Source: Eledone cirrhosa (taxonomy: Eukaryota). From it: DNA of 64,000 bases. The notes beneath the pieces are model-generated. The model did no database searches, was not told where the DNA came from, and saw only the letters and a list, made by a program, of their open reading frames with translations. Both the position numbers and the translations under genes were made by a program. The stretch covers positions 91,760,001 to 91,824,000 of the forward strand of contig OZ024747.1 in assembly GCA_964016885.1 (NCBI GenBank). The letters are read 5' to 3'. Position 1 is the stretch's first letter. Each line of letters starts with the position of its first letter. This document shows, piece by piece, positions 5,003-62,294 of the stretch.

Positions 5003-5245
5003 AATAACTGTTTCTACTTTTAGCACAAGGCCAGCAATTACATCAGTGCATTACCAGAGCAATAATTGTTTCGACTTTAGGCACAAGGCCAGCAATTACC
5101 CAGTATATTATTGGTACTTTATTTTATCGACCCCGTAAGGATGAAAGGCAAAGTTAACCTCGGCGGGAAGAGCAATAATATGTTTTATTTAGGCACAGGG
5201 TCAGTAATTTAAGGGACAGGGAAAGTCAGTTGAATTGATCCCAGT
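5003..5245 (-). mobile_element. Stack of 5'-truncated SINE-A copies
   Basis: Three SINE tails in tandem, with AGAGCAATAA repeated at each junction (TSD-like). Confidence 0.85.
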
Positions 5246-5560
5246 CGAGGCGACGGTCACTAGTCTAGCAGCATGTTCGTTGATGCTTGTTACATCCAGC
5301 ATCAAAAACTTAACCTTCTTGGTCTAGGAAGATGTCCGTATCGTCATCCAGGCTTTTCTGAAAGTACACAGCGATTCTGCTACCAGATCCCAAACATATA
5401 AGAGATGCGTACACCCCGTAGTCGCTGAAAATGGGTGCGAAGGCCCATGTCTCAGATATTCTTGTCTCGTTAATGGCCGCCACATCTATATTTAGTGACC
5501 TGAGACTGTTAAGCAGAAAGCTTTGTTGCCAAGACAAGCCCAGTCCACATGCCAACCTTG
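5246..5560 (-). pseudogene. Degraded Tx1-type ORF2 APE N-terminal fragment
   Basis: GLGLSWQQSFLLNSLRSLNIDVAAINETRISETWAFAPIF aligns with GLGSSWKQGHLLNDLRSLNIDVVASSETRISEAQDFAPIF of ORF 54815..58234. It continues past a stop as LDVTS..RLVTV. Confidence 0.85.
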
Positions 5561-7036
5561 ATACTAATAACAATATTAATAGCGATACTAATATAACATT
5601 TACCGCTGATCACATATATAACAACGTTAGAAGTAAGGACATTATAACATGGAGTAACCAAATGTATCCAATGAGAGTAAATCCGACTTCTGTTGCAGCT
5701 GGAATTTGTCAACACTCCATAGTAGTTGCACAAGGAAAAGCTGCCTATGCATGTAGCTAAATTCCTATATCATGTTGAAGGCGTTCCCGTGCACTGAAAT
5801 TGAACTACCGTCTCAGCAATGAGCACAGTGATATAGTAAATCAGCATTATGATAGCCAATTCTATTACCTTGTTAGACAATTTCCTATACTCATCCATAC
5901 ACACAGTACACTATGTGATATTGAATAAACAATATATCGCTACAAATGACAGGTGTCAAAATTGAATAGATAAATAGAGAAATAAATTGAAATAATAAAT
6001 AGATATTCAACGACGCCAAGCAACGAACATAACCACGATGACACTATGCAATTACTCTAGAAAAAATTAACAAAAATATGTACCGTATGATCATCAAATA
6101 AAAATATCAACAATGGAAGATTGCGATAGCAAATATTTGAATGCACACAACCTAAAGAAACAATATGGCTTTAAACAAAAGATTATAACAGGATAGTATT
6201 CTACAAATATTGTACTCATAAAATTACTCTTTTAAAGGAAACAACTAAAGTCTGATAAAACTATAATGCAGCGGAGGTATAATATTTGATAAGCAGCATA
6301 ACAATATATAGACATATGAAGCCCAGTGTTGCAACTAAGCTATAATAAAAATGATAGCAGGTTCAGGAAGTAAATAACAGCAATAAAGATTGGACTGCAT
6401 TTATATTTTCAGTGGTTATCACATCATATTTGGCACTGACAGACAAAAGCCTTGAAGCAAAACAGATGATTCCTTACCTATAGAATAACAATTACCCGAC
6501 CACAAAATAAAGAAAAAAGATTACCGCAAATATTGGCTGTTGGAAATTTATAAAGTACTCCCAAATAAAATATTCGAGAAAATAACTGAACATTTATAAA
6601 ATAAATGTAATTTCTTTAGGGCAATAGTATGGCCGAGTCCTGCGAAACAATTGATCAGATTTTGTTAAGAAAATGGAAGTAGATGATGGTGCCAAGGTCT
6701 AGAGTAAGTAATGTAACGAAGTAAATACATAAAATTGAGGCTTTTAAATGTCTAATGAAAAAGCTATAAGTAGATAAATGAGACGAAGACAATCTGAAGT
6801 TTATAGAAGCAACTATAAGCGAATGTGGTATATCGTGATCAATAATACCATGATTATAAATTCAAACTAAACACGAAGACCGAGATTACTGTCCTACATA
6901 AGTTACCTTTAAATTGACTAGCACATCAACTTCGAAAACTACAGGGGACAAGAGAATACGAATTAGCACCTCCACATAGACACCATACAATAAAATAACA
7001 GTGTACCCTTCACATGTCCTCAGAATATATAGACGT

Positions 7037-9314: not shown

Positions 9315-9645
9315 ATAATAATAATAATAATAATTCTTTCTACATTAGACACAAGGCCAACAATTTGACTCCGTAACGATGAAATAATAATTGTTTCTAC
9401 TTTTGGCACAAGGCCAGTATTACTGGTGCTTTATTTTATCGACCCGGTAAGGATGAAAGGCAAAGTTAACCTCGGCGGGATTTGAACGATGAAATAATAA
9501 TAGTAATAATAATAATAATAATGGTTTCTTATATAAGCACAAGTGAAGCAATTATTTTTTTTTTGGGGGGGGGGGGACGAAAGTCGATTAATTCGACCCC
9601 AGTGTGTGACTGGTACTTTATTTTATCGACCTCGTAAGGATGAAA
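9315..9645 (-). mobile_element. Cluster of truncated SINE-A copies in (TAA)n
   Basis: Three SINE tails. One has a 17-bp TSD AACGATGAAATAATAAT (9375-9391 and 9485-9501). Confidence 0.85.
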
Positions 9646-19612: not shown

Positions 19613-19643
<31 letters not shown>

Positions 19644-19715
19644 AAACTACCAGTAATACACTGGGTAATTGCTGGCCTTGTGCCTAACGTAGAAACAATT
19701 ATTATTATTATTATT
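18955..19715 (+). mobile_element. Head-to-tail array of four SINE-A copies or fragments
   Basis: Repeated heads (GGTGGATTGGCAG), cores and tails, most followed by (ATT)n. Confidence 0.9.
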
Positions 19716-28455: not shown

Positions 28456-28652
28456 CGGCGGTAGATTGGCAGTATCGGTAGAGGGTCGGACGCCATGATT
28501 TGACGTATAGAGTTACGGTCCTTGCCATTCTTAGTTCAAATCCCGCCGAGGTTAACTTTGCCTTTCACCCTTACGGGGTCGATAAAATAAATTACCAGTA
28601 ATGCACTGGGTAATTGCTGGCCTTGTGCCAAAAGTAGAAACAATTATTATTG
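28456..28652 (+). mobile_element. SINE-A, full length
   Basis: Complete head, core and tail. Both flanks begin ATTATTATT.TA.AC. Confidence 0.9.
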
Positions 28653-33949: not shown

Positions 33950-33955
<6 letters not shown>

Positions 33956-34635
33956 CGTAAAATAAGAAAATTATAGTAATTAACTTACTGACCTAAATTT
34001 CACTCGTACTAATTAGTTTCTGAAAGGGGATATACATAGTCACCAAATGGAAACCATGTAGAATCCTTTCTTCATCAGGGAATCATTCTCGGCTAAGATT
34101 CCTGGTAATACGCGGACACAGAAATAATCCACTGGATGGAAAAATGCAAGCGCGGACTAAATTCCAAGACACTGAAAATTTCACTGCCTTCCTGGTCAGT
34201 GGCAAATTCAAAAGAATCAATCACGTGACATCGAGGTTAATCAGTGAGTAGTGGGTTTTAAAAAGACAGTAGCCAAACTAATACTATGAACCATAATAGT
34301 AATTTAGGCAAATTTTTGCTCAACAAAATAATTTGGAGATAATTATAAAGAATTAGTATATCTACCAACATATTTATACAGATGTATACTTACGCTAGCA
34401 AAGATATAGGTTTTGTCTTAGTAATTTTGTGGTTCAATACAAAGAAATGTAGAACAATTATATAAAAGACATAAAATAAGAAAATTATAGTAATTAACTT
34501 ACTTACTTAAATTTCACTCCAACTAATTAGTTTCTGAAAGGGAATATACATAGTCTTCAAATGGAGACCATGGAGAATCCTTTCTTCATCAGGGAGTCAT
34601 TCTCGGCTAAGATTCCTGGCAATACGCGGACACAG
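33950..34635. repeat. ~170-bp direct repeat pair
   Basis: 33950-34120 and 34465-34635 are highly similar, both ending AATACGCGGACACAG. Confidence 0.9.
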
Positions 34636-35233: not shown

Positions 35234-35392
35234 GGGCGGTGGATTGGCAGTATCGGTAGAGGGTCGGACACCATGCTTTGCAGCGCAGTTACGTCCCTTT
35301 ACTGATTGAGTTCAAATCCCGCCGAGGTTAACTTTGCCTTTCATCCTTACGGATAATTGCTGGCCTTGTGCCAAAAGTAGAAACAATTATTA
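35234..35392 (+). mobile_element. SINE-A with internal deletion
   Basis: Head and tail present. The central GGGTCGATAAAATAAAGTACCAG segment is missing. Confidence 0.85.
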
Positions 35393-39810: not shown

Positions 39811-40026
39811 GGGCGGTGGATTGGAAGTATCGGTAGAGGGTCGGACGCCATGCTTTACAGCATAGAGTTACGGCCCTTTATGATCTGAGTTCAAATCCTG
39901 CCGAGGTTAACTTTGCCTTTCATCCTTACGAGGTCGATAAAATAAAGTACCAGTCACGCACTGAGGTAGATTTAATCGACTTTCCCCTCCCCAAAAATTG
40001 CTGGCCGTGTTCCTATATAAGAAACG
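39811..40026 (+). mobile_element. SINE-A long-tail variant with 17-bp TSD
   Basis: TSD ATATTTAGAGAACGATT at 39793-39809 and 40027-40043. Confidence 0.9.
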
Positions 40027-41411
40027 ATATTTAGAGAACGATTGATAGGCAGGAACGGAACAGCCATGTGCTAGATTGCATTTAGTTACGTCATCTAACG
40101 TTTAGAGTTTAAATCTTATTGCTGTTCATTGTATCTCCCTACTTCCACTCGATAAACCAGATGAAACAGTAATTGACTGATGTTGATGCAATTAACTGTG
40201 CTTTTGCCCTACATGTTTGTAATATTTTGCCAATGTAAGATATCATTATGATTTATATTTCCTGTTAGGGATTTTATAAAATTGAAGCAAGGCACTTATT
40301 TTCTAATCATAAACATATCGATACAATGATGTTGGAATTATTACTTCCAATAAACTTCCAAAGTTTGATCTCGGTGTTTGTAATTGTAAACCTTCGACCG
40401 TGATATTGAAAATAATATTAGATACTAACCAATCAAGTTATTTCACTGATATAATCATAGTAAAGTCATGCTATCTAAAAGATAGAGACAGAACGTGAGG
40501 TTAAAATCGAAAACTTCTGACTGACGAAATTGTTCTTCCCTAACATTGTTATACATCGTGGTGTTAAATGCATGCACTCTTACAAACGATCAGTTCAATC
40601 GAAATTAGTTATGTTTATGTCGAGTTCTAACAACGCAAATGGAAGTAAATTCTTAAGGTTGGGAGAAGGAACTTGGGGTCACTATGATTTTAAATAGTTT
40701 TATTACCAGACAATTCGATCATAAAGAAGAGAAGAAATTAGTTTAGCTTTAACGTTGTCATAATGAAAACTGATAGAAACGTGGCTTCGAACTTAAAGGA
40801 GAGTGTGTTTGTGAATTGAATTTGTCTATAAAATATATAAAGAAATAAAGTACTAGAAACTAAAGAAATTGTGAGCAAATAATTTCCAATAAAGGTTGGT
40901 ATTACGTTTCAAATCTGAGGTGTCAAATTTGGAACGAAGCACACATATACCTAGTGCATCAAAACAAATGAATAAAAAAAGAAAATCAATGAACCGCATT
41001 GAATATGCCAGTCGCCAATTTCATAACACAATTCTTACACAGCAAGCAGCAAATGTTTTTACGTGGAAATGTTATTACGACTGATGTCTTAGCAAACATG
41101 TGAACGAAAATTTAGGCCAAAAACAGAATTTGTTTTAGTGCTGAAATTATTTTTTACGACTTTTTAAGCACCATTAGTTTTTAAACTTTTGTATTGTTTG
41201 CTAATTAAATATTTTTTGATATATGAAAAAAAAAGAACCTTAATATAAACTGCTGAATATTAAAAAGAAGAATTATTCATGTTTACATGTATCTGTATGT
41301 TATAAACCATTGTTGCTCCATCCTTCTTTATGTATGTATGTACATTTGTATGTATTTATGTATGTATGTGCGTACGTATGTAAGTACGTATATGTGTATA
41401 TATGTATGTGT

Positions 41412-45967: not shown

Positions 45968-48900
45968 AATAACAATTTAAAAAAAAACAACAAAAAGAAA
46001 ACCCCGTGACCAAGAATTACCAGGATGGCGGCCGGCGGGGAATAGCCGTGTCTCTAGGGGAGAACGACCCCTCTAGTCTTGGTTGACACTCGTTCTAGAA
46101 GTGGTAACACGAAATGATTACCCCTTGGCGGATAAGGATAAAACGCGACAAAATAAAGTAAATGTCTAATGATAAAATCTCATACCGGTTCGGCCGTCAC
46201 CCGGGTAAAAAAGGGCCGCGTCCCTCAGAGAGGAACCAGACTGGGGTCGAAAAATTAGTTAATGGTTCAAACCTTCCCATCACTTCGGAGCTGGAGACCT
46301 CCCATAACCGGAATACTCCTACTGTTGACCCTCCATGCTCACCACCAAGAAATCCAAAGAAAAAGAGAGAAAAATGGTCAAGGGAAGATAATAAAGAAGT
46401 CCTTGAGGCTTTCTACACTGCCATGTACTACCCATCAAATACATCGAATACAGAACAGACATATATCAACTGGAAAAAGAAACATCCCGAAAACAGAGGC
46501 TATATTGACAGTAACAAACTAGCCGATATACGAAGAAATATTGTAAGAAAATAGTTACTAACTGATATAGAAATTGATCAGATCAAGCTATTAGCACAAA
46601 GTCAGCGAAGGGAAAATGAAACATGTGTCAGTGAAAACGAGGTAAATTGTAACACTTCGAATCCCAGGGTTGGGGCGGAATCACTGGCAACAGAACAAAT
46701 TAAAGAAAGGATCGAAAAAGTGGAGGGAGTGCATGCTCAAGACGAAACTCCAAATGAAAATAATGAGATCGTAAATGATAAAGAAATGAATGAGAATGAA
46801 CTTGCCAACTTGAAGGATGAAATTATGATCGAATGGATGAAAATGAAAGAATCTGACATGGGGCAACGAGACACCCTCCCTAAGATCCAGAACTCCAAAC
46901 AGAACCAAAAGATAATACACAAGACTAACATAATTCTCAAAAACATTATCATCACAAACAAACTAAACATTACTGATTTAAATCATCTCTATTATGCATC
47001 GACTAAAGTCACCACTCACTTATGTGGAGTGAAGATGAAAAAACAAAGGAATTCCCACAAGAAATCTACTTGGCAAGAGAACATCAATCGCCAAATAAAC
47101 CTTCTCCGATCTGACATAGAAATTTTAACAAACTATAAAGTAGGTGAACATGATAAACAAACTAAACTTAGAAAATTGAAAAAAAAGTACAGTATAAAAT
47201 CAACAAGTGACATAGACATGCTGATAGAAATAATCAAGCAAAAAGTGTCGGCCAAAGCTGCTCGTATAAGGCGCTTTGAAAAACGATCTAGATTCTATAG
47301 GGACAATAATATGTTCAAAAACAACCAAAGAAACTTCTACAGAAAAATTGGTAAGTCAACAATAACTGCTAAATCAATACCACCCAAGGAGGAGGTGCAA
47401 GAATTCTGGGAAAAGATCTGGGCCGAAGAAAAAGTTAATAACATACATGCCCCGTGGAGAGACAGACAAATGAAAGATACAGCTCACCTTGAGGAACAAA
47501 TATGGGAAAATATAACAGTTGAACTGTTGCGCTTGGCTCTAAGAAAAACCAGCAAAAGACAAAATACAAAACTTTTGGATAAATGCCTTCACAGAGTCTC
47601 ATGAGCTGTTAGCCCAACTTTACAATGAAATAGTTAAGGAGCCAGAAAAGATACCATCATGGCTAGTTAACGGCATTACATTCCTTCTTCCGAAGAATGA
47701 TGAGACAAACAATCCCAAAAATTACAGACCGATAACTTGCTTGACTACAATGTATAAAATTTTAACATCAGTCCTAACTGAATACACATATGACCACCTG
47801 ATAACAAATGACCTATTTCCCATTGAACAGAAAGGGTGTAAACGAGGCTCATATGGCTGTAAGGATCAGCTTCTGGTTAACAAAATGATACTGGAAGATT
47901 GTCATAATAGACACAAAAATCTATCGATTGCTTGGATAGATTATAAAAAAGCATTCGATAGTTTACCATACAGTTGGATTGAAAAATGTTTAGAGATTTT
48001 CAAAATATCCCCCGTTGTCAGGAGGTTTTTGTCATTCAGTATGAAGACATGCAAAACGACACTCCTTTTGAATAGTGAAACAAAATCACTAGAAGCTGGA
48101 GAAGTTAATATTAATTGTGGAATTTTTCAGGGTGACTCTTTATCACCGCTTTTATTCTGCATCGCATTTATACCATTAAGTAAAATGCTCAATGAAACAA
48201 AATATGGATATAAAGTCTATGACAAAACCATTAATCACTTGTTCTACATGGATGATCTGAAACTATTTGCAAAAAATGATGAACAATTGCAAGGGCTATT
48301 ATCCACTGTGGAGCAGTTCAGTGATGACATTAAAATGGAGTTTGGACTAGATAAATGCGCCAAAGCAACGTTCACCAGAGGAAAGCTGCTGAAGAGTTCA
48401 GACATTAATCTTGATCGGGGTAACGTGATAAGAGAACTTGATCAAGAAAAAACTTACAAATATCTAGGTGTTTGTGAAGGAGACGGAATCAAGCACTCGA
48501 CAATGAGGGAAAGGATAAGGAAGGAGTGTTACCGCAGAGTAAGAGCAATCTTAAGAACGGAATTGAATGTAAGGAATAAGATCGATGCCATAAACACGCT
48601 TGCCATACCAGTAGTAACCTACAGTTACAATGTCATCAACTGGTCAAGCACAGAGATCTGTAGGCTCGATACAAAAATTCTAAAATTCTTAACCATGCAC
48701 AGAATGCATCAGCCTAAGGCAGATATAGATAGAATATATCTCCCTAGGAAAGAAGGAGGACGTGGGTTAATCCAGTTAGACATTGCGTTGAAAACTGCAA
48801 CAATTGGATTATCTACATATCTAAGGGAATCACATGATTGGATGATCAAACTCGTTTTGAAACACGAAAGCATCAAAAGATCATATTCCATTACAAAAGA

Positions 48901-49938
48901 TGCACAAAGATACAGTAATGGACTACAAATTTCAGAAGTCCCATTTACTGCTGAAATGGAAAACACAGAAAAAGCAAAGCAGGTAAAAGTAACTGCAAAG
49001 AAAGAACTGCTACAGAAACTGGCTAAGAAATGGCAAGAAAAGCCTCTGTATGGAAAATACCCAGAGCGAGCTAACAATCCTGATGTTGACAAAACTTTAA
49101 CCCATCAGTGGTTGCCATCCTCTGGACTGAAATCGGAGACTGAAGGACTGATTATATCAGCACAAGATCAGTGTCTGCCAACAAAAAATTACCAAGCCAA
49201 CATAATAAAAAATGGATGCAGCCCATTATGCCGTGTATGCAAAAAACAACCAGAGACCATTGACCATATAATTTCAATGTGCAGTCCTATAGCTCCAACC
49301 GAATACCTAAACAGGCATGACAGAGCTGCTCAATACATACATTGGATAATGTGTAAGCATTTTGACCTGCCCCATCAAAAGAATTGGTGGGAGCATCAAC
49401 CACCTCCCATACTTGAAAAAGATCACATCTCAATCTTGTGGAACTTTAGCATCCAAACAGACCGAAAAATAGATGCAAATAGACCTGATATAATATTGAA
49501 GGACTTTAAAAAGAGGGCATGCCTGCTAATTGATATGTCTGTTCCAATAGACAAGAATGTATCTATAAAAACATTTGAAAAATTGAGCAAGTATAAGGAC
49601 CTGGAGATAGAAATTGGAAAAATGTGGAAATTGAGAACTAAAACAATACCAGTGGTTGTAGGCGCTCTGGGAATGATACCTAAGGTGTCTAATGATTACT
49701 TATCGCAAATCCCAGGAAACCCGCGTATAGGAGAAATACAAAAGATAGTACTAATGGGAACTGCCCATATACTAAGGAAGATTCTGTCAATATAAGTAGA
49801 TCACAAGTCTAAACACTAAAGATGCATGTGTGAGTATGTATGTTCTTTCTTGAACATGGCGGACCTTGTTGTCTCTTGAGGTCACTGGTTGTGACTTGGT
49901 GATAACTCGTATGAACATAAAGCAAGATAAATGCAACT

Positions 49939-49940
<2 letters not shown>
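45968..49940 (+). mobile_element. R4/Dong-clade RLE non-LTR retrotransposon, family A, full-length but inactivated
   Basis: ORF pieces 46162-46554 and 46720-47604 are in frame (stop at 46552). Piece 47741-49795 follows a frameshift near 47553 where the WKSPG motif is deleted. RT GIFQGDSLSP/YMDDLKL, CCHC CRVC..H....C, RLE RHD..RPD..D..K..KY. (TAA)n tail. Confidence 0.93.
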
Positions 49941-49971
<31 letters not shown>

Positions 49972-49975
<4 letters not shown>

Positions 49976-50530
49976 TGGGCAGGGTGATCCACTGGCACCT
50001 GTGCAAAGTAAACAATTTACCACATTCTGAGAAATGGTATGAGCATAGGCCAGAGTCGGTGATGGAGAACAATCAGGTGAAGGTGCTGTGGGATTTTAGG
50101 ATACAGACGGACAAAAAACTGGAACACAATAGACCTGACCTGGTGGTTGTGGACAAAGAAAAAAGATCGTGTCTGATTGTGGATGTGGCCTGCCCGTTCG
50201 ACACGAGAGTGCAAGAGAAGGAGAGGGAGAAAATTAACCGATACCAGGACCTAAAGTGGGAGGTGAAAAGGATTTGGAACTGCCATGAAATCAAAGTGAT
50301 CCCGATTGTCATAGGCGCACTGGGGACTATCTCCAAAAGTTTCCAGGGATGGTTAAAGAAAATCGGCCCCTTCACGCTTTTTGGAACGCTTCAAAAGGCA
50401 TGCTTTCTGGGAACAGCAAGAACCCTCCGATACGTCCTGAATATCTGAGGCTGCAGGTAGTGGCTTGATATTCATTCCAACGGACTTTCCAGTTAACCAA
50501 CATCAATGACTGAGATTCAAGGAATAACAA
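49972..50530 (+). mobile_element. 5'-truncated R4/Dong family B copy
   Basis: 158-aa ORF near-identical to the C-terminus of 51076..54468, plus 3' UTR. Lies between (TAA)n tracts. Confidence 0.95.
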
Positions 50531-50531
50531 C

Positions 50532-50590
<59 letters not shown>

Positions 50591-50650
50591 TAGATAATAA
50601 TAATAAATATAGATAATAATAAATATAGATAATAATAATAAATATAGATA

Positions 50651-53600
50651 GACTCAAAAGAAAAAAGAAAAAACAAACAACAAAAGCAGCACAGCAACAA
50701 CAGCAAAAAACGAGAAAAACAAACAGAGAAAAACAAAAACAAAAAAAGAAACCCCCAAAACGTAAAGAAAATAAGAATGAAGAGAGAAGCAGGCGGACGG
50801 ACAGAGAAGAGGGGGTAAAAAGTAAAACTTAAAAAACAAAAACTAAGTCAGACATTCGAATACTACATTACAATGAAACTTATGCTTATTCATTTTTGGG
50901 GCCCTTTCTGCCCGTGTGTTTGTTTGTTTATGTGTGTCCGTATACAGCGTGGTGATAATGCCACACAAGGGCCAAGTGGGATGGCGGATCCACAGATGGC
51001 TATGTAAACATACATTCGCCAATCCTCGATAAGAGTGTTTAAATATCGAACATAAACAGTTCGAATAACGGTGAAATGGAGACTAGAACGTCATGTGACA
51101 GACTCTCACCCAACAGGTGCCCCCTGGCTCAGCAGCAGGAACCTGACTGTCAACCAAATACTGCTGATGTTGGAGGAAGAAGAAGAAGGAAAGGGGCCAG
51201 AACCAACTGGACGAAAGAATTGAATAGAACTGTTATGCAATGCTACCTGAAAAGTAACCCCAAGGAGAGGGGCTACAGGAGACGGATGCATAACATCTGG
51301 AACGAGATTGGTTTATTTAAATTAGATGAACAAAAATTGGCCGGGCAGGCTCGGGTAATAAGAACTAATGGGTGGATAAGCGAGCTGGAACTGGAGGAAC
51401 TGAGCAGAGAGAATGGCTTGGAGATGGCGGGTGTAGTATGCCAGACAAGCGAGCCGGCGGGAAATGAAGGTGAGGAGGTCCTGAGAACGGAGGAACCACC
51501 CGAAGCAGACAATGATCTGAATACTGAGATAAATAATACCTGGAACAGAGATACGGCCACTGAGGAGATGAATGCTGACGGGCTAGGACAAGATTCGGTT
51601 GACATCCTAAATTTAGTGGTAGATGAGTTGAACAATGATAGTGGGAGACCTATGAGCCTAAGATTTGTAGACAGGAAAAAGTTAAAAGAAACAACAGCTA
51701 AGGTAAACAAAGTCATCCCATACCTTGAGGCGAGGAGTCTTCACCAGTGCAACAATATCCTCAAAGCAACAGCAAATACGGTGAGGAAACTACTTGGTAT
51801 AAAAGCGAGAGGAAACAACAGACAAGAAAGAGCAGAGCCGTGGTGGAAGAAGCGACTGAGTGGGCAAATCGGGGAAATGAGAAATGACATAGGAAAGCTT
51901 GAGTCACTACTGAATGGGACACTAAAAAACATAGGCACTAAAAATAGACTGGAAATAAAATACAAAACTAGGAGTAAAAAGCTAAATATTATCATAGAGG
52001 AATTGAAGCAACGCATTGTAGCAAAGAGTGCCAAAATCAGGCGATACGAGAACAGAGTCAGTCAGTATAAACAGAACCGCATGTTCGACAACAACCAGAA
52101 GATGCTGTTTGGACAGCTTGAGGGGAAAGAAAGAGGCAACGACTTGATCCCTGGGGCGGAACAAGCTAAAACATTCTGGAGAGGAATATGTGAGCAGGAT
52201 GTTAGACACAATGCCCAGGCAGGGTGGATTGAGACAGTACAGAGGGAGATCGGTGAGCAGGCACAGCAACAGACTGATTTGAGTATCACAGTTGAAACTC
52301 TTAAGGGGCAAGCCAAAAAACTAACCAACTGGAAATCACCAGGCCCAGATGGTGTGCAGGGGTATTGGATTAAACATTTAACGTCCCTCCACCCGAAGCT
52401 GACGGCCATGTTCAATGACTGCTTGGTGTCGGGTGAGGTGCCAGAGTGGTTGACAAAAGGTACCACAGTTCTGATAATGAAAGACCGAATCAAGGGTAAT
52501 GATGTTACCAACTATAGACCTATCACATGTCTGCCCGTAATGTGGAAACTGTTGACGAGCATTGTGTCTGAGGAAATCTACCATCACCTCCACACAAACA
52601 ACTTGTTGCCGGACGAACAGAAAGGATGCCGAAAGAAGTCACGTGGTACAAAGGACCAGTTGCTTATTGATAAGATGGTAATGGGGAATTGCAGGAGGAG
52701 ACACACTGATCTTGCAATGGGATGGATAGACTACAGAAAGGCATTTGACATGGTGCCTCATTCCTGGATCACCAAAAGCCTGGAGATCTTCAGGGTGGCA
52801 GATAACATCAGACAGTTGCTGGGCAGGAGTATGGGGTCCTGGGAGACAGAGTTGACATCAACTGGAGTATCCTTGGGAAGCGTGAAGATCAAGAGAGGTA
52901 TCTTCCAGGGAGATAGCCTGTCCCCTCTGTTGTTCGTCCTTGCCCTGATGCCCTTGACCATTATGCTGCGAAAAGTGAGAGCAGGATACAAGTTGGGAAG
53001 GGGAGAGCTTACCATCAATCACCTCCTCTTCATGGACGATCTTAAGCTCTTCGGGAAAAGTGAGAAGGAGTTGGATGTGCTTGTTGACACTGTCCGTATT
53101 TTCAGCAGTGATATATGTATGCAGTTTGGTATTGGTAAATGTGGAGTCATTGTGATGAGGAGGGGTAGGTTGAGCAGAAGTAACGGGATCCAGATACCAA
53201 CAGGTGAGATGATAAAGGAAATTGACTCTGAGGAAGGATACAAGTATTTGGGCGTTCTGGAGGCTGATGACATAAAGAACAAAAAAATGAAGGAATTGTT
53301 AAGAACTGAATACATTCGGAGAGTAAGGAGCGTATTGAAGTCACATCTGAACAGCAGAAATGCCATAAGCGCAGTAAATTCCCGAGCTGTGTCTATTATT
53401 AGATACAGTGCGGGAATTCTGAGATGGAATGTTGCTGAACAAAAAGAAATGGATAGGAAGACTAGGAAGCTATTGACTATCTACAACATGTTCCACAAGA
53501 GGAGTGATGTCGATAGACTCTACCTAAGGAGATCTGAGGGTGGAAGAGGTCTTATCAGCATAGAGGACTGTGTTCAGATGGAGAAAAACAACCTATACAA

Positions 53601-54572
53601 ATACGTGACCTATAGTAAGGAGCCAATGCTCAGAGCTGTACTGAAGGAGGGGACAGTAGGCCAGGGGATATCCAAGGAGGAAATAACATCAAGGAGGAAG
53701 AGCAGCCTTAAGGGAAAATCCCTTCATAGTACCTTCTTTGAGAAAACTGAATTTAGAGATCCACAGACATGGAACTGGTTGAGAAGAGGAGACCTCAAAA
53801 AGGCTACAGAAGGAATGCTAATGGCTGCGCAGGAGCAGGCCCTCAAAACGAAGTGGTTGAAGCACCATATCTACAAGGAGGAGGCTAGCCCACTGTGCAG
53901 GATCTGTGGAGAGAGAGAGGAGACTGTGGCTCACATTGTGTCCGAGTGTAAACACCTAGCCCAGACCCACTATAAGGGCTGGAGACACGATGTGATGGGC
54001 AGGGTGATCCACTGGCACCTGTGCAAAGTAAACAATCTACCACATTCTGAGAAATGGTATGAGCATAGGCCAGAGGCGGTGATGGAGAACAGTCAGGTGA
54101 AGGTGCTGTGGGATTTTAGGATACAGACGGACAAAAAACTGGAACACAATAGACCTGACCTGGTGGTTGTGGACAAAGAAAAAAGATCGTGCCTGATTGT
54201 GGATGTGGCCTGCCCGTTCGACACGAGAGTGCAAGAGAAGGAGAGGGAGAAAATTAACCGATACCAGGACCTAAAGTGGGAGGTGAAAAGGATTTGGAAC
54301 TGCCATGAAGTCAAAGTTATCCCGATTGTCATAGGCGCACTGGGGACTATCTCCAAAGGTTTCCAGGGATGGTTAAAGAAAATCGGCCCCTTAACGCTTT
54401 ATGGAACGCTTCAAAAGGCATGCTTGCTTGGAACGGCACGAACCCTCCGATACGTCCTGAATATCTGAGGCTGCAGGTAGTGGCTTGATATTCAATCCAA
54501 CGGACTTTCCAGTTAACCAACATCAATGACTGAGATTCAAGGAATAACAATAACAATAATAATAATAATAAT
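50651..54572 (+). mobile_element. Full-length R4/Dong-clade non-LTR retrotransposon, family B
   Basis: A-rich leader, structured 5' UTR, single intact ORF, ~75-bp 3' UTR and (TAA)n tail. Confidence 0.95.
51076..54468 (+). CDS. Reverse transcriptase / CCHC knuckle / restriction-like endonuclease polyprotein (R4/Dong type), 1130 aa
   Basis: WKSPGPDG, YRPITCL, DYRKAFD, GIFQGDSLSP, HLLFMDDLKLF, YKYLG, CRICGEREETVAHIVSEC, RHD, RPDLVV..DVACP..KINRYQDL. Confidence 0.96.
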   Translation: METRTSCDRLSPNRCPLAQQQEPDCQPNTADVGGRRRRKGARTNWTKELNRTVMQCYLKSNPKERGYRRRMHNIWNEIGLFKLDEQKLAGQARVIRTNGWISELELEELSRENGLEMAGVVCQTSEPAGNEGEEVLRTEEPPEADNDLNTEINNTWNRDTATEEMNADGLGQDSVDILNLVVDELNNDSGRPMSLRFVDRKKLKETTAKVNKVIPYLEARSLHQCNNILKATANTVRKLLGIKARGNNRQERAEPWWKKRLSGQIGEMRNDIGKLESLLNGTLKNIGTKNRLEIKYKTRSKKLNIIIEELKQRIVAKSAKIRRYENRVSQYKQNRMFDNNQKMLFGQLEGKERGNDLIPGAEQAKTFWRGICEQDVRHNAQAGWIETVQREIGEQAQQQTDLSITVETLKGQAKKLTNWKSPGPDGVQGYWIKHLTSLHPKLTAMFNDCLVSGEVPEWLTKGTTVLIMKDRIKGNDVTNYRPITCLPVMWKLLTSIVSEEIYHHLHTNNLLPDEQKGCRKKSRGTKDQLLIDKMVMGNCRRRHTDLAMGWIDYRKAFDMVPHSWITKSLEIFRVADNIRQLLGRSMGSWETELTSTGVSLGSVKIKRGIFQGDSLSPLLFVLALMPLTIMLRKVRAGYKLGRGELTINHLLFMDDLKLFGKSEKELDVLVDTVRIFSSDICMQFGIGKCGVIVMRRGRLSRSNGIQIPTGEMIKEIDSEEGYKYLGVLEADDIKNKKMKELLRTEYIRRVRSVLKSHLNSRNAISAVNSRAVSIIRYSAGILRWNVAEQKEMDRKTRKLLTIYNMFHKRSDVDRLYLRRSEGGRGLISIEDCVQMEKNNLYKYVTYSKEPMLRAVLKEGTVGQGISKEEITSRRKSSLKGKSLHSTFFEKTEFRDPQTWNWLRRGDLKKATEGMLMAAQEQALKTKWLKHHIYKEEASPLCRICGEREETVAHIVSECKHLAQTHYKGWRHDVMGRVIHWHLCKVNNLPHSEKWYEHRPEAVMENSQVKVLWDFRIQTDKKLEHNRPDLVVVDKEKRSCLIVDVACPFDTRVQEKEREKINRYQDLKWEVKRIWNCHEVKVIPIVIGALGTISKGFQGWLKKIGPLTLYGTLQKACLLGTARTLRYVLNI

Positions 54573-54814
54573 GTTTTCTTTATTAACCACAAGGGTTCAC
54601 ATAAAGTAGACATTAAGGACAGTACAGGACAATACAGGACGGTACAAATGGGCATTTCTGCGTGTAAAAAACAGAGGTTGAAATAAAATAACAAAGAAAA
54701 ATTCCCCAATAGGGGGGAGACTTCCAAGGGACATTTGTGGAGAAAGCCCATTAAAAGACCACAGTGGCCCTGACCACCAGGGCAAGCGCCCTCTCCCAGT
54801 TTTCCACCTTTAAT

Positions 54815-57800
54815 TTACAGACACATACTCAGAGAAGGCCCATTCATTCGGGCCATACTTGCTTCTCTCACCCATCTTTCAACAAAATGCTGGGAAGAGA
54901 GCACTTCCCTCTCTACCCTGATTTTCCTTTTCAAATGAAATTTGAAAAAGTTAATCAGGGCATCACCGAAGAGGTAAGTGCTCGTCTTCAGCCCTTTCAA
55001 ACGTGTCCACCATACTATCTCTTTCGCCATGGCCACCAGACAGATAAAAACTGCCTGCACTTCCAGGCTAAAGGAAGGGGGCGGGGCAATCCTCACGATG
55101 GACTCAGCTGATAGCTGGATCCGTCCTACACGTGACAGCAGGTGTTCGAGATAAACCCACAAGTCAGCAATGCTCGGACACTGGACGAGTGCGTGCAGGA
55201 CGGTTTCGTGGCCCTGCGCGCATCTCGGACATGCCCGGCTGACGGCACCTCCATGCCTGTAGAGTTTATCCCGAACTGGCAAAGCTCCTCGGTAGCACTG
55301 CCAGGCCAGGGATTTCTGGAAGTTGTCCATAGGCCCCGGCCTGAAAGTCCTTCCGAAGAGATTGGCTAGTTGATTTTCGTCGACGCCTAGAGTTTCTCCA
55401 AGTACGTCGTCGCTCTTCCCCTCCACTAATCCCCTATAGAACGCCAAGGTGGAGTTTCCACCGATCACATTGCCCGATTGGTCGAGGGCTGTGAGCGCCT
55501 GAAGACATTCCAGTCTCCAAGCGCTCCCTCTCGGTCTTCGCTTGACCCAGGACTGCAGCTCCGTCAAGGAGACGAGCTGGGGAAAAACGTGTCTTGCAAA
55601 CGGCGACCACACCTGATCACCGTCGAGGAAGAGGTGGAGATGTCGTAGCCTGAGCGCGTGTCTGCGCATCATCAGCCACGGCATGCCCAGCCCTCCACGT
55701 AGCGGGTGTTGACAGCAGATGGACCGCCTGACCATCGGAGCGCGTCCCTTCCACAAGAAGCGAAAGAGCAAACGCTCCAGCGCAGTCAGGCGGGGCTTCG
55801 GACAAGGTACGACGGTCAGGCGGTAGTAGATGACGGATGCGATGTACGCATTCGCCACCTCCTCTCGACCTTTCAGGGATAGCTTCCTCTCGGCCCATTT
55901 CTGGGTGAGAGAAGCCACCCTGCTCGTCACCTCGTCCCAGTTTTTGTTCGTCTGGAGGTCTGGACCGAACCAGACCCCTAGCAATTTAACCGGTCCGTCC
56001 GTCCAGCGCCCGACGACGCTGTTGGACGGCATGGACCTGCCTCTCCAGGTGCCGAGCTGCAGGCCCACTGACTTTTCCTGGTTGATCATTGCTCCTGTCA
56101 CCGCTTCGTATTCTCTTAGTGTAGTGCCGATCGCCTCGATGTGTTTGGCGTTCGACACCACTACGGTGACATCGTCGGCATATGCTGACACGGATCTTCC
56201 GCATCCTAGTTCGCGCGGGACCCCCCTCAACGTCTCCAGTTTGTGCAGTAATGGCTCGAGAGTCAATACGTACAATAGGGACGAGAGGGGACATCCTTGG
56301 CGGACCGAGCGCATGATGTTGAACGGTTCCGAAAGGTGACCGTTCACTCTCACTACAGAGCAGATGTCGCTGTGCATGGCAGCGATCCAGCCTCTGAAGA
56401 CGGGCCCAAAGCCAGCCGCCCTCAGGACTGCCGCTAGGTAACGATGGTCGACCCTATCGAAGGCTTTCGACTGATCTAAATTGATCAAAGACCCACCCGT
56501 GCCAGGTTCCCTAGCTACCCTCTCTACGATGTATCGCATGAGGTGGAGGTTGTCGTGGATGGATCTGTCGGGAATGGCGCATGTCTGTGCCTCTCCCACC
56601 AGACCACCAACGACAAGCGCCAACCTCTTTGCTAGCACCTTGGCCAAAATCTTGAACTCTGTGTTTAGCAGAGTTATGGGCCTAAAATTATCTATGTTAT
56701 CCCCCTTGTTCGGATCCTTTCTCAGCAGCGCCACAGCTCCTCGGCTCACAGAGCTGGGAATTCTCCCGTTCTGTTGCCAGTTGCAGTAGACGTCCGCCAA
56801 GAGGCCTCCGAACAAGTTTGGCATTTGTACGTAAAGTTCATAGGGCAGACCATCCAAACCAGGCGATTTACCCCTTGTGCAACTAGTCATTGCATCCCGT
56901 ACTTCAGCGGTTGTTATCGGCTTTTCGCAACACTCCGCCTCAGTGGCCGAAAGCCGCGGCAGTCCGTCGAGGTAGACACTAAAGTCCATCCCTCGATCCG
57001 GCCCGCCACTGCCCCCGAACAGTTGAGCGAAGTGTCGCTGAAAAGCTTCACACATTTGCCCGGGATCGAGTAGCATGCGCCCGTCGAAGTCCACCAAAGA
57101 CCGGATCGTGGCTTTGTTGCCACGACGCGCCTCCGCCACTCGGGCCCATTGAACGGCTTTCGTCCCCTCGTGTCTGAGAGCACGCACCCTTGCTCTGACA
57201 ACGCAGCCTTCGTGCTTTGCATTGAAGAATTGGTCAAGGGCCAATTTCGCCGCAAGTACGTCGGTCGCGATGCCTTTGCTAAGCGCCTCATCTAATTTTC
57301 TAACTAATTCTCCCTCTGCTCTATTTTTCTCTATTGCTAAAGTCTTACTAAACCTAATGGACTCTATTCTAATTGCTCTTTTCAGAGCAAACCACCAGTT
57401 GTTGTTGACGATGGCCCCCGTCAACGCCCGCTTAACTAGTTCGCTAATCCGGTCTCTGTAGGCCTTGCGCGCTGGTAAGGACGCGTTTAGCTTCCAGTAG
57501 CCGGGTCCTCGTCTATGAAGCCTATCTAAGTCAAGCACACAGATCACGAATTTGTGGTCCGTGTAGCTGACTATCTTGAATTGTGGACAGGCTATGCTAG
57601 ACCTATCTATTTCCCTACAAAATACTCTATCTAGATATGATCTGGATGACCCTATGCGATTTGTCCAAGTCCACATTGGTACATTCGGGAAATCCATTCG
57701 GTACCTGTCAGACAGTTCAAAACGTCTGAGCAGGTTGGTGAGACTCTTGCACCCTCCTTCCCTATCCACTAATCCCACACAATCCCAGCGTGCATCTAAG

Positions 57801-58234
57801 ATCCCGTTCCAGTCGCCCACTAACACTAAAGAGCGGGACGTTCCAAGAAAGGTCTCCAGACGCCGGAAGAAATCAGGCCGCCCTGCTCCTGTCGGGGCAT
57901 AGACGGCCACTAACCTGAAAGCTTGCCCGTCTCCGCTGGTCACGTCCAGCACCACCATCTTACCTTCTGGGTCCAGGAATATGGCCCGTATGGCAAGATC
58001 CAAACCTCTCCGAAAAAGCACAGCAACTCCTCCCCCCGATCCCGGACGGCTGGGAGATGCGTACACATCGTAGCCGCCGAAGATCGGTGCGAAATCCTGC
58101 GCTTCTGAGATTCTGGTCTCGCTGCTGGCCACTACATCTATGTTTAGTGACCTGAGGTCGTTGAGCAGGTGGCCCTGCTTCCATGACGACCCCAAGCCAC
58201 GCACATTTATGCTGCCTATTCTGAGTGAGGTCAT
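54815..58234 (-). CDS. ORF2: APE endonuclease + reverse transcriptase + C-terminal Cys-rich knuckle, 1139 aa
   Basis: IGSINVRG, SET, VYAP, GDWN, SYLDR, TDH (APE). KSPGLDG, FRPITLLN, DQSKAFD, VRQGCPLS, AYADD (RT). CPRC..ETVLHALVQC. Confidence 0.96.
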   Translation of the reverse strand: MTSLRIGSINVRGLGSSWKQGHLLNDLRSLNIDVVASSETRISEAQDFAPIFGGYDVYASPSRPGSGGGVAVLFRRGLDLAIRAIFLDPEGKMVVLDVTSGDGQAFRLVAVYAPTGAGRPDFFRRLETFLGTSRSLVLVGDWNGILDARWDCVGLVDREGGCKSLTNLLRRFELSDRYRMDFPNVPMWTWTNRIGSSRSYLDRVFCREIDRSSIACPQFKIVSYTDHKFVICVLDLDRLHRRGPGYWKLNASLPARKAYRDRISELVKRALTGAIVNNNWWFALKRAIRIESIRFSKTLAIEKNRAEGELVRKLDEALSKGIATDVLAAKLALDQFFNAKHEGCVVRARVRALRHEGTKAVQWARVAEARRGNKATIRSLVDFDGRMLLDPGQMCEAFQRHFAQLFGGSGGPDRGMDFSVYLDGLPRLSATEAECCEKPITTAEVRDAMTSCTRGKSPGLDGLPYELYVQMPNLFGGLLADVYCNWQQNGRIPSSVSRGAVALLRKDPNKGDNIDNFRPITLLNTEFKILAKVLAKRLALVVGGLVGEAQTCAIPDRSIHDNLHLMRYIVERVAREPGTGGSLINLDQSKAFDRVDHRYLAAVLRAAGFGPVFRGWIAAMHSDICSVVRVNGHLSEPFNIMRSVRQGCPLSSLLYVLTLEPLLHKLETLRGVPRELGCGRSVSAYADDVTVVVSNAKHIEAIGTTLREYEAVTGAMINQEKSVGLQLGTWRGRSMPSNSVVGRWTDGPVKLLGVWFGPDLQTNKNWDEVTSRVASLTQKWAERKLSLKGREEVANAYIASVIYYRLTVVPCPKPRLTALERLLFRFLWKGRAPMVRRSICCQHPLRGGLGMPWLMMRRHALRLRHLHLFLDGDQVWSPFARHVFPQLVSLTELQSWVKRRPRGSAWRLECLQALTALDQSGNVIGGNSTLAFYRGLVEGKSDDVLGETLGVDENQLANLFGRTFRPGPMDNFQKSLAWQCYRGALPVRDKLYRHGGAVSRACPRCAQGHETVLHALVQCPSIADLWVYLEHLLSRVGRIQLSAESIVRIAPPPSFSLEVQAVFICLVAMAKEIVWWTRLKGLKTSTYLFGDALINFFKFHLKRKIRVEREVLSSQHFVERWVREASMARMNGPSLSMCL

Positions 58235-58268
58235 GTTGAAAAGGAGTGGAAAAGATGGGAAAGACCAC

Positions 58269-60224
58269 TTACCTTACTTCTCGTAGGGGAAGGACGGTTT
58301 TTCCATCCTTTTCACTGCTTGTGGCCTCCTCAGGAAGGATGTCCTTATAAATCCTCCTGGAGAGTGCTTGTCGGAAGTCTCCGATGTCTTTGGGGAATTT
58401 TTGTTTTAGTGTCATGTACGTTTTCTGTGTGATGCGAGTGATTTGTATGTGTGTAGGTGGTGTGAATTTTGGGGTTGTTGTGTAGTCTTTTTCTGTGATG
58501 CTGGTGTTGTGTTGGATGTAGTGTAATAATTGCTTGTTGTTCAAATTTAATGCTGTGTAGTGTGTATCGTTTTGGTTGTTTTGTTTTGTTTGCGTTTGTT
58601 GTGGGTTTGTTTCTGTTTCGCATTTTGGTGACTTTTGTGGTGTAGGTGATGGTGGTATTGGAGTTAATGATGGTGATGGTGTTGGTGTTTGGGTTGATGG
58701 GGTTGGTGATGCTGGTGTGGATGGTGGCATATCTGTCCTAACTTTTTTGTTTCTTAGTTTATTTGTTTCCCTCTGTGTTTTGTTTTTGGAGGGAGAAGGA
58801 AGAGAATTTTTTCTTTTTTGGTTTCTTTTTTTTTCCGGATATCGTTTCCCACTCCTCGTCGTCACAATCTGTCTCCAGTTGTGATAGGCCGGGGAGTGGA
58901 AAATCCTCCACAGCCGTTAGTTTTGGTTGTGGTGTGGTGGATGGTGTAGGCGCTGGTGCTAGTTCTGAAGCGTTGGGTGGTGGTGGTATTGGTTTTGCTG
59001 GTGGTGGTAGTGGTGTTGGTTTTGCTACTGTTGCTGGGGTTGTTGCTGTTATAGTTGCTTCTGTTGTTGCTGCTACAGTTGTTGCTGCCATCTCTGCTAC
59101 TGGTGGTGTTGATGGTTGTGTCACTGGGGTGGGTAGGAGAGGTGGCCTCAACCTTTTAGCCTGAGGGCAGAAAGCCCTTAGGTGGGTTCCTTCACCACAA
59201 ACGACACACCTAGGTCTTCTGCCCTCGACAATTACCGTGAGGTGGCTGCCGTCAGTGGGGTCTATTACCTCTGGGATCTCCTCAATGCTTTTTTGGTCCG
59301 CTTGGATCAGGAGCTCCATCCCAGATCCGGACCAGTTTTCCTGCTTTTCTTTTGCTACTGCTATTATTTTCGTGTTGGCTTCGATGCCGGCGAGGACAGC
59401 CGCTATTAGCCAGGGAATTTCGATGGCCGGTGGAACGTGGGTCACCCTGATCTTTACGAGTCTCTGGCCACAATAGCTTGGGACGAGTGTGAGGTCGTCA
59501 CTTTTTAATGGGGCCATGGAGTGTTCTCTAGCCTCCTCTGGTGTTTCAAAGAACACATCCACGGTTCCATACTTTTGCCCACGTCTGATGTGGGTTTTTC
59601 TTGCCCACACATGTCCCAAAGCTTTTTGGATTTGGGACTCGGATGCCCGTTCCACTCGGCGCGATTTTACATTTATTGTTCTATACGACACGGTGTACAG
59701 GCGCCGATGCTCCATTTTATTAGGTGGGGGTGTGAGGCTGACCCTGTACCCATCTTTCTTTACCATTTGTTTGGCATTTTCTAAATCTTCTTGAGTTACG
59801 GTAAATGCTTCGAATTGTTTTGCTACTCTGGCGAAACTGAGGGGGGGTTTATAATGTCATTGTTGTTGTTGTTGCTATCGTTAATATTAATTTTAGTTTC
59901 AGTTGTGGTGGTGGTGACGTCAGTCGTCTTTGGTGGGGAAGAGTCCATTTTGCTTGATTTCATTTTGACATCACGAGTTAATTTATTTTTTTCTTCTTTT
60001 GTTTCTGTTGTCGCGGTGGTGGTGGTGGTGGAGGCTTTAACACCTGCAGTCATTGGTAATGGTGGGAAATGAATGTCTGCCTGAGACAAATTTAAAATAT
60101 TGCTACTGCTTATATTTTTTTTTGTGTTGGCAAACGTAGTAACATTTACAATGGTGGTGTCGGTGTGAGGTGTTATTTTGTGAGGAAGGCTTTCAGCTGC
60201 TTCGTGCAGAGGTGAAGTAGCCAT
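58269..60224 (-). CDS. ORF1 (gag-like, CCHC zinc knuckle), split by two frameshifts at homopolymer runs
   Basis: Pieces 59823-60224, 58759-59766 and 58269-58865. CVVCGEGTHLRAFC knuckle, Pro/Thr-rich linker, W..ISGKK basic patch. Frame changes near the G run at ~59840 and the T run at ~58826-58834. Confidence 0.8.
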
Positions 60225-60433
60225 TTTTTTTCAAAGAAATTTTTTGATAATAATAAAAGTTAAAATTTTGGGCACAAGGCCCCAATCTTTTTAGGTGTCC
60301 TTTTCGGAAAACAATGTATGTGTGCTTATAAACAGTTAACAATAAAATTTTCCATAAATGGCAATTTTTAAACAAACGGAAATAATAAACCTTTGCGGAG
60401 CTCACGATAATACGATTTTCTACGTAGGTCGCC

Positions 60434-60523
<90 letters not shown>

Positions 60524-60541
60524 AAGAAGAAGAAGAAGAAG
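60434..60541. repeat. (TAA)n followed by (AAG)n
   Basis: Seen directly in the sequence. Confidence 0.95.
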
Positions 60542-60546
60542 ACAAT

Positions 60547-60920
60547 ATGCCTGACAAAGTGGTTTTTGACAAGGAAAAAAGATCGTGTCTGATTGTAGAT
60601 GTAGCCTGCCCCTTTGACACAAGAGTGCAAGAAAAGGAGAAGGAGAAAATTAGCCGATACCAGGAGTTAAAAAGGATTTGGGACTGTCATGAGATCAAGG
60701 TTGTCTCGACTGTCATAGGAGCACTAGGTACTATCTCAAAGAGTTTTCAAGGATGGTTAAAGAACATTAGTCCAGCTCCTTTTTTGGAACACTTCAAAAG
60801 GCATGCTTGCTGGGAACAGCAACAGCACTCCGATACGTCCTGAATATGTGAGGCTGCAGGTAGCAGCTTGATGTTCATTTGAACAAACTTTCCAGTTAAG
60901 TAACATCAATGACTGAGACA
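60547..60920 (+). mobile_element. Older 5'-truncated R4/Dong family B-related copy
   Basis: PD.VV.DKEKRSCLIVDVACPFDTRV.., with small deletions and a frameshift. Same 3' UTR. Confidence 0.9.
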
Positions 60921-61505: not shown

Positions 61506-61830
61506 GGGCAGTGGTTTGGCAGTATCGGTAGAGCGTCAGACACCATGTTTTGCAGCATAGTTATGGCCCTTTGCGTTCTGAGTTCAAATCCGCCGAGGTT
61601 AACTTTGCCTTTCATCCTTACGAGGTCGATAAAATAAAGTACCAGTGGTGCACTGGGGTAATCGCTGGCCTTGTGCCAAAAGTAGAAACTCTAGAGTTAG
61701 GTCCCTTTATTATCTGAGTTCAAATCCCGCCGAGGTTAACTTTGCCTTTCATCTTTACGGGTCGATAAAATAAAGTACCAGTAATACACTGGGATAATTG
61801 ATGGCCTTGTGCCTAAAGTAGAAACAATTA
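61506..61830 (+). mobile_element. SINE-A dimer (full + truncated)
   Basis: Two cores and two tails in tandem. Confidence 0.9.
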
Positions 61831-62107
61831 ATAATCACTGTCGTTAGTTTAAACATTCTCATTGCCCCACGCTTGATCCTCACGTACACCTCAGATCATC
61901 TTCAACCCCAATAGGAGTTTCTTTATAATCATCAGTTATTTTTCCAAAAATCATCACCAACGGCGTCTGCTGTACATGCATAACCGTTACTGGTATATTA
62001 TTACAAATATCATTGTCATCATTATTTCTATCGAAAGAGTGAGAGAGGGTGTGGAGGGAGGAGAGCAGGAAAGAAGGGGAGAAGGGGAAATATGTAGGGG
62101 AAATAAT

Positions 62108-62294
62108 TGTTTCTACTTTTGGCACAAGGCCAGCAATTACCCAGTGTATTACTGGTACTTTATTTTATCGACCCCATAAGGATGAAAGGCAAAGTTAACC
62201 TCGGCGGGATTTGAACTCAGAATGGCAAGGGCCGTAACTCTATGCGTCAAAGCATGGCGTCCGACCCTCTACCGATACTGCCAATCCACTGGCC
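62108..62294 (-). mobile_element. SINE-A with 18-bp TSD
   Basis: TSD ATATGTAGGGGAAATAAT at 62090-62107 and 62295-62312. Confidence 0.92.

Follow-up and report, generated by a model that had tools for sequence, protein, structure and literature searches.

A predicted CUUGU-loop hairpin at matching 3' ends of a Tx1-type LINE and the commonest SINE in a 64-kb window of the Eledone cirrhosa genome

The commonest SINE in a 64,000-nt stretch of the Eledone cirrhosa genome (assembly GCA_964016885.1, contig OZ024747.1, positions 91,760,001 to 91,824,000; hereafter the window, whose own numbering is used throughout) and a Tx1-type LINE in the same stretch have matching 22-nt 3' ends. Because these ends are both capable of forming a hairpin in predictions and both elements sit at ATT sites, the SINE is likely to borrow a Tx1-type enzyme, and a lineage of the Tx1 group probably mobilises it by acting through the hairpin. 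Within that proposal, it is doubtful that the LINE family at 54573..60431 is itself the direct partner. An earlier, sequence-only reading had named this Tx1 family or a relative; the Tx1 group is supported by the anchored end match, by a predicted hairpin with swapped base pairs, and by an ATT target, an orientation and a duplication size (17-18 bp) common to both elements, but the exact family is questionable because all three outer stem pairs differ, and the direct partner may thus be a sister Tx1 family.

The LINE (54573..60431, minus strand) is a near full-length Tx1-type non-LTR retrotransposon, as judged from its ORFs, Pfam matches and the (ATT)n on either side, and its 5' boundary assumes that the 207-nt leader upstream of ORF1 belongs to the element. 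ORF2 (54815..58231, minus) is intact, with 1138 aa, and has the domain order of the Tx1 clade: an N-terminal AP-type endonuclease, a reverse transcriptase and a C-terminal zinc-binding domain (Pfam matches PF03372, 6e-12; PF00078, 1e-28; and PF13966, 1e-07). Human L1 ORF2 is its top match in the PDB (1e-52), and scores of 181 bits against L1 ORF2 versus 77 bits or less against R2 place its reverse transcriptase nearer to the L1 superclade than to R2-type elements. ORF1 (58759..60224, minus) begins with an ATG at 60224, carries a single frameshift near 59850, and includes a CCHC knuckle and features resembling ZCCHC3 RNA-binding and zf-CCHC domains. Its Pfam search gave no match above the cut-off, and its scores of 0.91-0.94 against ZCCHC3-RBD and zf-CCHC clusters in the Atlas are a lead only; a fish relative bears PF23057, PF23058 and PF00098. 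The 3' UTR (54573..54814, minus) is 242 nt long and lacks a poly(A) tail. This architecture and the Atlas lead for ORF1 suggest the Tx1 label; the searches returned no named Tx1 element as a match. Between the two ORFs is a 490-nt A/C-rich spacer (58270-58760, minus) that has an open frame of its own (58269-58916, 215 codons, Pro/Thr-rich).

The only named animal near the top of the ORF2 protein matches is the cuttlefish Acanthosepion pharaonis, with a protein that is 50% identical across the reverse transcriptase region, and other protein relatives are up to 78-85% identical. One 67%-identical piece of the ORF2 C terminus (P0256 / P0296) corresponds to an NCBI protein from a Herbaspirillum sp. 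MAG, encoded on a 1775-bp contig, and is likely to be animal DNA mis-binned in a bacterial genome. Parts of the LINE are present in 20 of the 24 sequencing runs listed, which come from 16 studies; there were no RNA data sets among those listed with the LINE. A metagenome scan recovered 80 distant LINE loci (22-48% identity), none with the motif or the SINE, and several distant relatives end in poly(A). No matches were obtained when viral contigs and genomes were searched with an ORF2 alignment, when plasmids and phages were searched at the DNA level, or when protein collections were searched with the open frame of the LINE 3' UTR. At about 5040-5120 of locus L045, the end of a distant Tx1-like relative adjoins sequence resembling 5S rRNA, a known type of Tx1 target.

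Four of the 24 runs were compared over 54200-55700 with positions 54537-54585 left out, which places AGAAA outside the comparison. In X4, a set of contigs from another organism, depth increased from 1,575 to 91,892 and then to 1,036,791 over bins 54506-54556, 54557-54607 and 54608-54658; as the neighbouring LINE is rare in X4, this step implies that the LINE family reaches into the hairpin bin. The loose-end consensus of 58 X4 contigs (agreement 0.71, median length 19) reads CCTTGTTGT, in which CCTTGT is in register after allowing by eye for a 10-nt tandem unit, and the stem is not shown in it. X1 was uninformative because both LINEs are abundant there, X12 had little data over the interval, and raw-read run X21 had 0 reads over it. 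Therefore, X4 provides modest support that the hairpin end belongs to the LINE family.

The SINE family is short, non-coding and dispersed, with a full-length size of about 190 or 220 nt, 5' truncations and target-site duplications. An nhmmer profile built from 11 hand-picked long copies matched the window 37 times, with 32 matches at E<1e-3 and 23 extending to the 3' end, and divergence from the majority sequence was 5-17% among 11 copies. All 11 long copies contain a B-box-like GTTCAAATCC pattern and nine of them an A-box-like pattern, at a spacing of about 67 nt; no tRNA was detected in the SINE by ARAGORN or Rfam, and the Rfam matches in the window were microsatellite artefacts only. Identity with MetaSINE was considered and dropped, because published Meta-type bivalve sequences are unlike the SINE body by eye and motif searches were blank, and no support was found for a Ceph or RTE-5'UTR origin. 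Short motifs from the SINE body are absent from the available parts of the supplements of PMC4824008 and PMC5786205, and a motif search of genome-contig and viral-contig collections gave 0 matches. SINEs comprise about 11.6% of the Octopus vulgaris genome; of its 900 SINE families with recent activity, 893 are unclassified, and its L1-Tx1 elements fall into 80 consensus families (PMC13282606). For octopuses, the literature describes Dong-R4 and L1-Tx1 alongside abundant SINEs (PMC13282606, PMC10294476, PMC8967140).

On the minus strand, 54595-54567 reads CCCTTGTG-GTTAATAA-AGAAAAC-ATTATT, as had been claimed for the sense 3' end of the Tx1 element, and the majority end of the SINE reads GCCTTGTG-CC(A/T)AAAGT-AGAAAC-A-ATTATT. 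The last 22 nt of the LINE (54594-54573, minus) agree with the SINE majority end at 15 of 22 positions, with the register kept up to the ATT junction, and each element has exactly 22 nt from the first C of CCTTGTG to its end. For comparison, SINE copies match their own majority end at 16-22 of 22. In simulations on UTR composition, the chance of 15/22 was P = 1.5e-5 to 4e-5 at a fixed register and P = 1.1e-4 to 1.7e-4 when the best among 7 registers was taken. Within the window, only 4 of 117,176 non-SINE 22-mers score at least 15/22, namely the LINE 3' end, a site in the LINE leader (16) and two unrelated sites, and the LINE end ranks first among the 318 non-SINE sites that immediately precede an ATTAT run. 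A weight matrix constructed from 23 SINE ends, chosen by nhmmer and not by motif, placed the Tx1 end third of 117,192 sites, or first of 117,066 with the next ATT included; with 8 nt upstream added, it falls to rank 19 of 116,856. Unanchored local alignment of the whole LINE 3' UTR with three SINE copies did not pick the anchored match, and the likeness appears to stop at the hairpin, with no similarity upstream of the stem. The match between the LINE and SINE ends is real and beyond chance.

The SINE end had also been described as a CCTTGTG-N8-AGAAA architecture in which the 8-nt spacer varies. The spacer variants are present (CCTAAAGT at 27202, 36765, 61805 and 5088; TCTAATGT at 9356; and CTTATATA at 9544, where the 5' block reads ACTTGTG, not CCTTGTG), but the spacer does not vary freely: its columns are conserved in 13-22 of 23 SINE ends, and the variants mostly reflect copy decay together with a CCAA/CCTA subfamily difference. 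Of the architecture itself, the shared anchored end holds, but it is better described as a predicted stem-loop, in which the start of the spacer would pair with the bases before CCTTGTG. Similarly, the ATTATT that had been read as the SINE tail is the start of the target-site duplication.

The predicted 3'-terminal hairpin of the LINE (54573..54606, minus) comprises an AACC stem (54597-54594), a CTTGT loop (54593-54589) and GGTT (54588-54585), with a lower stem of CTTTAT/ATAAAG and an unpaired AAAAC end. Its MFE is -5.2 kcal/mol (z -1.27), and the inner-pair probability is 0.87-0.91 in contexts of 30-82 nt and 0.22 at 142 nt. The two elements have the same CUUGU loop and closing C-G pair, with predicted stems of AACC/GGUU (LINE) and UGGC/GCCA (SINE). 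Beyond the closing pair, the following three read C-G, A-U and A-U in the LINE, G-C, G-C and U-A in the SINE, and G-C, G-C and G-C in a further copy in the LINE leader; all six outer-stem bases therefore differ between LINE and SINE, yet the three pairs remain Watson-Crick. The chance of a full stem is 0.015 by composition, and full stems occur at 98 of 3922 C-N5-G sites, giving a range of 0.015-0.025. Among nine non-SINE CCTTGTG sites, a full stem is found at only two, both inside the Tx1 LINE.

In an alignment of 25 rows, of which 24 are distinct, 74% of cells are paired under the named structure and 7 further pair types occur, a level reached by 1 of 500 shuffles, and none of six slid controls does as well as the unslid structure; the structure used in these tests was derived from the same aligned sequences. 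The outer stem pair is broken in 12 of the 24 distinct rows and, as there is one intact Tx1 3' end, a single row carries any covariation that involves the LINE. When only the terminal 34 nt are folded, the hairpin forms in the LINE, the leader copy and six of seven SINE copies tried. Folding energies are weak: in a set of eight sequences, the z-scores ran from -1.27 to +1.05 and none was significant. Longer SINE contexts often refold, with pair probabilities often <0.1, and RNAalifold returned no consensus pair for the LINE and SINE ends. The shared hairpin is therefore to be treated as a good hypothesis rather than as a result.

The leader copy (60258..60291, minus) reads GGGC-CTTGT-GCCC followed by TTTATTATT, is located about 35 nt before the ORF1 start and is followed by ATT repeats; no other non-SINE site in the window matches the SINE end as well (16/22). 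It could belong to the LINE leader itself or mark the end of a short element upstream. The leader as a decayed whole SINE or as another Tx1 3' UTR was rejected, as there is no significant alignment aside from the hairpin (p 0.89; p 0.11-0.97). A second place where the two families meet is at 5179..5565 (minus), where an old fragment of a Tx1 endonuclease (about 70% identity to the young copy) is joined at a shared 5-nt ACTGG to a 66-nt SINE 3' end. No convincing duplication surrounds it, and next to it lie two more SINE ends inserted at the same ATT site. A chimeric join at a shared word is expected from a template switch inside a Tx1 particle, and this join is possibly such a chimera; in the absence of a clear duplication, deletion explains it equally well.

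Junction sequences link the two elements to the same kind of target. After position 22 of the SINE, AT follows in 18 of 23 ends, ATT in 15 and ATTAT in 13 (backgrounds of 0.109, 0.030 and 0.004, respectively). Duplications were sought in 20 SINE copies, and in 10 selected copies that were re-examined with the search anchored at the junction, nine had a junction-anchored duplication. Six duplications lie outside pure repeats, and all six start with AT directly after AGAAACA. They flank a full-length short form (62104..62292, minus; 18 bp, starting ATTATTT), a full-length long form with about 29 nt extra before the hairpin (39812..40029, plus; 17 bp, starting ATATT), an internally deleted copy (35235..35389, plus; 18 bp, starting ATTATTAAT), 5'-truncated copies at 9388..9489 (minus; 17 bp, starting ATTATTATT) and 5063..5168 (minus; 11 bp, starting ATTATT), and two joined copies within a single duplication (61507..61830, plus; 11 bp, starting ATTAAT). 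Another full-length short form (28457..28646, plus) lies within ATT repeats. Since AT starts the duplication on both sides of the SINE, ATT was present before insertion. Published duplications measure 7-18 bp for L1-clade LINEs and 7-15 bp for RTE; those of RTE-related SINEs begin at a T that lies some 10 nt beyond a run of T, whereas animal RTE LINEs themselves start with A (PMC6007223). The SINE duplications outside pure repeats depart from the RTE pattern of a T start and mostly <=15 bp, as four of six are 17-18 bp, a length inside the L1-clade range, and six of six start with A.

The LINE is flanked by (ATT)n on its 5' side (60432..60493, minus) and by an 18-bp (ATT)6 on its 3' side (54555..54572, minus), beyond which the repeat turns imperfect. 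The latter is the (AAT)n tail of the neighbouring restriction-endonuclease-type LINE (51043..54543, plus), in which the Tx1 element sits tail-to-tail and antisense, and is possibly a target-site duplication. A 5'-truncated SINE at 19641..19700 (plus) is placed likewise, antisense and tail-to-tail, within the (AAT)n tail of a fragment of a restriction-type LINE (19724-20069, minus). It is followed by (ATT)6 and then GTTATT, and its site type and orientation are those of the Tx1 insertion. The insertion signature in common is an ATT-first junction, strand and site type, the LINE side being a single copy flanked by (ATT)n at either end. Microsatellites abound in the AT-rich window, and those made of ATT serve as targets for several element types.

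The SINE end was compared with the ends of three LINE families in the window, namely Tx1 and two restriction-type families: the host of the Tx1 insertion, which we take to be Dong/R4-like, and a second family that ends in (AAT)n (46555..49941, plus). Both restriction-type ends are unlike the SINE end. These two families were rejected as SINE partners; they are poor candidates because they carry AAT on the opposite (sense) strand and their ends match at only 9-12 of 22 positions. Together with the antisense Tx1, they make up a 14-kb LINE nest (46555-60918) chained through (AAT)n, with the repeat as a shared landing pad. One restriction-type family is full-length and intact, with truncated sister copies at 49974-50530, 60538-60918 and 19724-20069. 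At 50899-50975, close to the full-length restriction-type LINE's 5' end, GGCCCTT and AAGGGCC could pair in a manner that, presumably, resembles the P1 helix of an HDV-like ribozyme; Rfam gave no match at these positions.

L1-superclade LINEs that share a short 3' end with a SINE have been described, as far as the accessible text goes, for ZmSINE2 and ZmSINE3 with LINE1-1_ZM (maize/sorghum) and for SINEX-3_CR with L1-1_CR (Chlamydomonas) (PMC3472496, PMC3747384). The hairpins of these pairs are similar to the present, predicted one in their conserved loop, conserved bases 3' of the stem and variable but compensated stem. However, those pairs are found in plants and an alga, share 45-80 nt and have homopolymer tails, whereas the present pair involves an animal Tx1-type element, 22 shared nt, no poly(A) and an ATT target. 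In crocodilians, movement of SINEU by the Tx1-clade element Tx1-Mar was also concluded from target choice and orientation (Kojima 2015, PMC4494074), but there the elements share snRNA heads at the 5' end, the tails are poly(A), the target is Mariner-N4, and no shared 3' stem-loop is described in the available part of that paper. From the same part, the Tx1 families Kibi, Koshi and those of crocodilians insert in simple repeats as here, but the repeats are (TC)n, (TTC)n and (TTCC)n/(TTTC)n, not ATT, and no partner SINE is named. Shared terminal stem-loops with compensatory changes are reported in accessible sections for UnaSINE/UnaL2, BivaV-SINE2/CR1-14_CGi and Au/RTE (PMC3747384, PMC4824008, PMC6007223); these stringent L2, CR1 and RTE pairs belong to other clades and usually share longer tails, and RTE duplications are shorter and start with T.

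The sequence-only reading had called tail sharing unusual for the L1/Tx1 group, which agrees with the L1 superclade accounting for only 3 of 58 known tail-sharing pairs, none of them in animals, in the portions available of Ohshima 2012 (PMC3472496) and PMC3747384. Neither a mollusc nor a Tx1 partner appears in the pair table of Ohshima 2013 (PMC3747384), in its accessible form. The accessible parts of the open full-text literature yielded no description of a tail shared by Tx1 and a SINE in cephalopods; one may exist in Repbase, in Dfam or in subscription papers such as Ohshima and Okada 1994 and 2005. If the partnership is true and its recognition stringent, animals would have a stringent pair of the L1 superclade, which the parts of the published lists examined do not contain, and Ohshima's idea of stringency as the ancestral state of that superclade would gain support. 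The pair would also provide a very small, testable RNA element for asking whether L1-like elements ancestrally recognised 3' ends strictly.

LINEs are mobilised through target-primed reverse transcription, with the endonuclease setting the target. For the SINE, RNA polymerase III would transcribe from the A- and B-box-like head, which is present in the copies, and on into the flanking (ATT)n. ORF2 would then bind the terminal stem-loop in trans, and the AP endonuclease would nick the 5'-ATAAT-3' strand. Reverse transcription would start 22 nt from the first C of CCTTGTG, where the junction is found, possibly aided by pairing between AUU and the primer, and a second nick would follow, mostly 17-18 bp away and sometimes 11, as the duplications indicate. 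Movement of this kind through a 22-nt hairpin, if true, would name the engine of a major repeat family and explain its bias to ATT repeats. A broader version can be put forward tentatively: an animal Tx1-group lineage may combine stringent recognition of a tiny CUUGU stem-loop with an ATT-specific endonuclease, and may thereby have driven octopus SINE expansion and seed SINEs in AAT/ATT microsatellites.

Other explanations fit parts of these data. The partner could be a LINE of another clade (RTE-BovB, CR1 or L2) that is absent from the window, in which case the Tx1 end captured a SINE tail or converged on it. All three clades are abundant in cephalopods, RTE-BovB is described as expanded in octopuses (PMC8967140, PMC10294476, both in part), and a bivalve L2-type SINE ends in ATT repeats (accessible part of the PMC4824008 supplement). 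Moreover, the SINE-like end in the Tx1 leader and the old Tx1 piece fused to a SINE end indicate that SINE sequence can enter Tx1 elements. This explanation is nonetheless unlikely, because the length and A-first start of the duplications misfit the published RTE pattern, no RTE, CR1 or L2 remnant was found in the window (a weak test, with 13 translated queries that were L1/Tx1- and R4-like), and a SINE tail captured in the right register would still leave Tx1 a capable partner. Alternatively, a Tx1-group LINE could move the SINE in a relaxed fashion, such that read-through pairing of (AUU)n matters and the hairpin is an unneeded relic of the origin of the tail. The shared sequence is a short 22 nt, and pairing of read-through (AUU)n with the target could suffice without the hairpin. 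The weak folding and the outer pair broken in half of the rows favor such a mode, as does the description of SINEU/Tx1-Mar, in the available text, by shared targets and poly(A) ends and not by a shared tail (PMC4494074). Against this, three swapped but still-paired pairs are hard to obtain in a neutral relic (0.015-0.025) and the junction is fixed at 22 nt, such that the relaxed mode is considered quite unlikely.

It is also conceivable that the resemblance is a coincidence between an A-rich end, a chance CCTTGTG and the general landing of elements in AAT/ATT microsatellites. The match was found after the fact, unanchored alignment misses it, two of the four non-SINE sites at or above 15/22 are unrelated to the LINE, and AATAAA in the LINE end could be a polyadenylation signal. 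However, the sequence alone has a probability of about 1e-4, to be multiplied by about 0.02 for the stem; for this to arise at one of only three LINE family ends in the window, with agreement in both register and orientation, makes coincidence very improbable. Mobilisation by a Tx1-group lineage acting through the hairpin is therefore the preferred explanation.

Two further repeats were observed in the window. A second dispersed family, about 200-270 nt in length and bearing inverted ends like CAGACCTGTCAAC...GTTGGCAGGTC, is present at 2873-3022, 26158-26354, 27495-27614 and 31037-31189, and is possibly a MITE. Additionally, a 171-nt direct repeat occurs at 33951-34121 and 34465-34635, with the two copies 93% identical and 514 nt apart.
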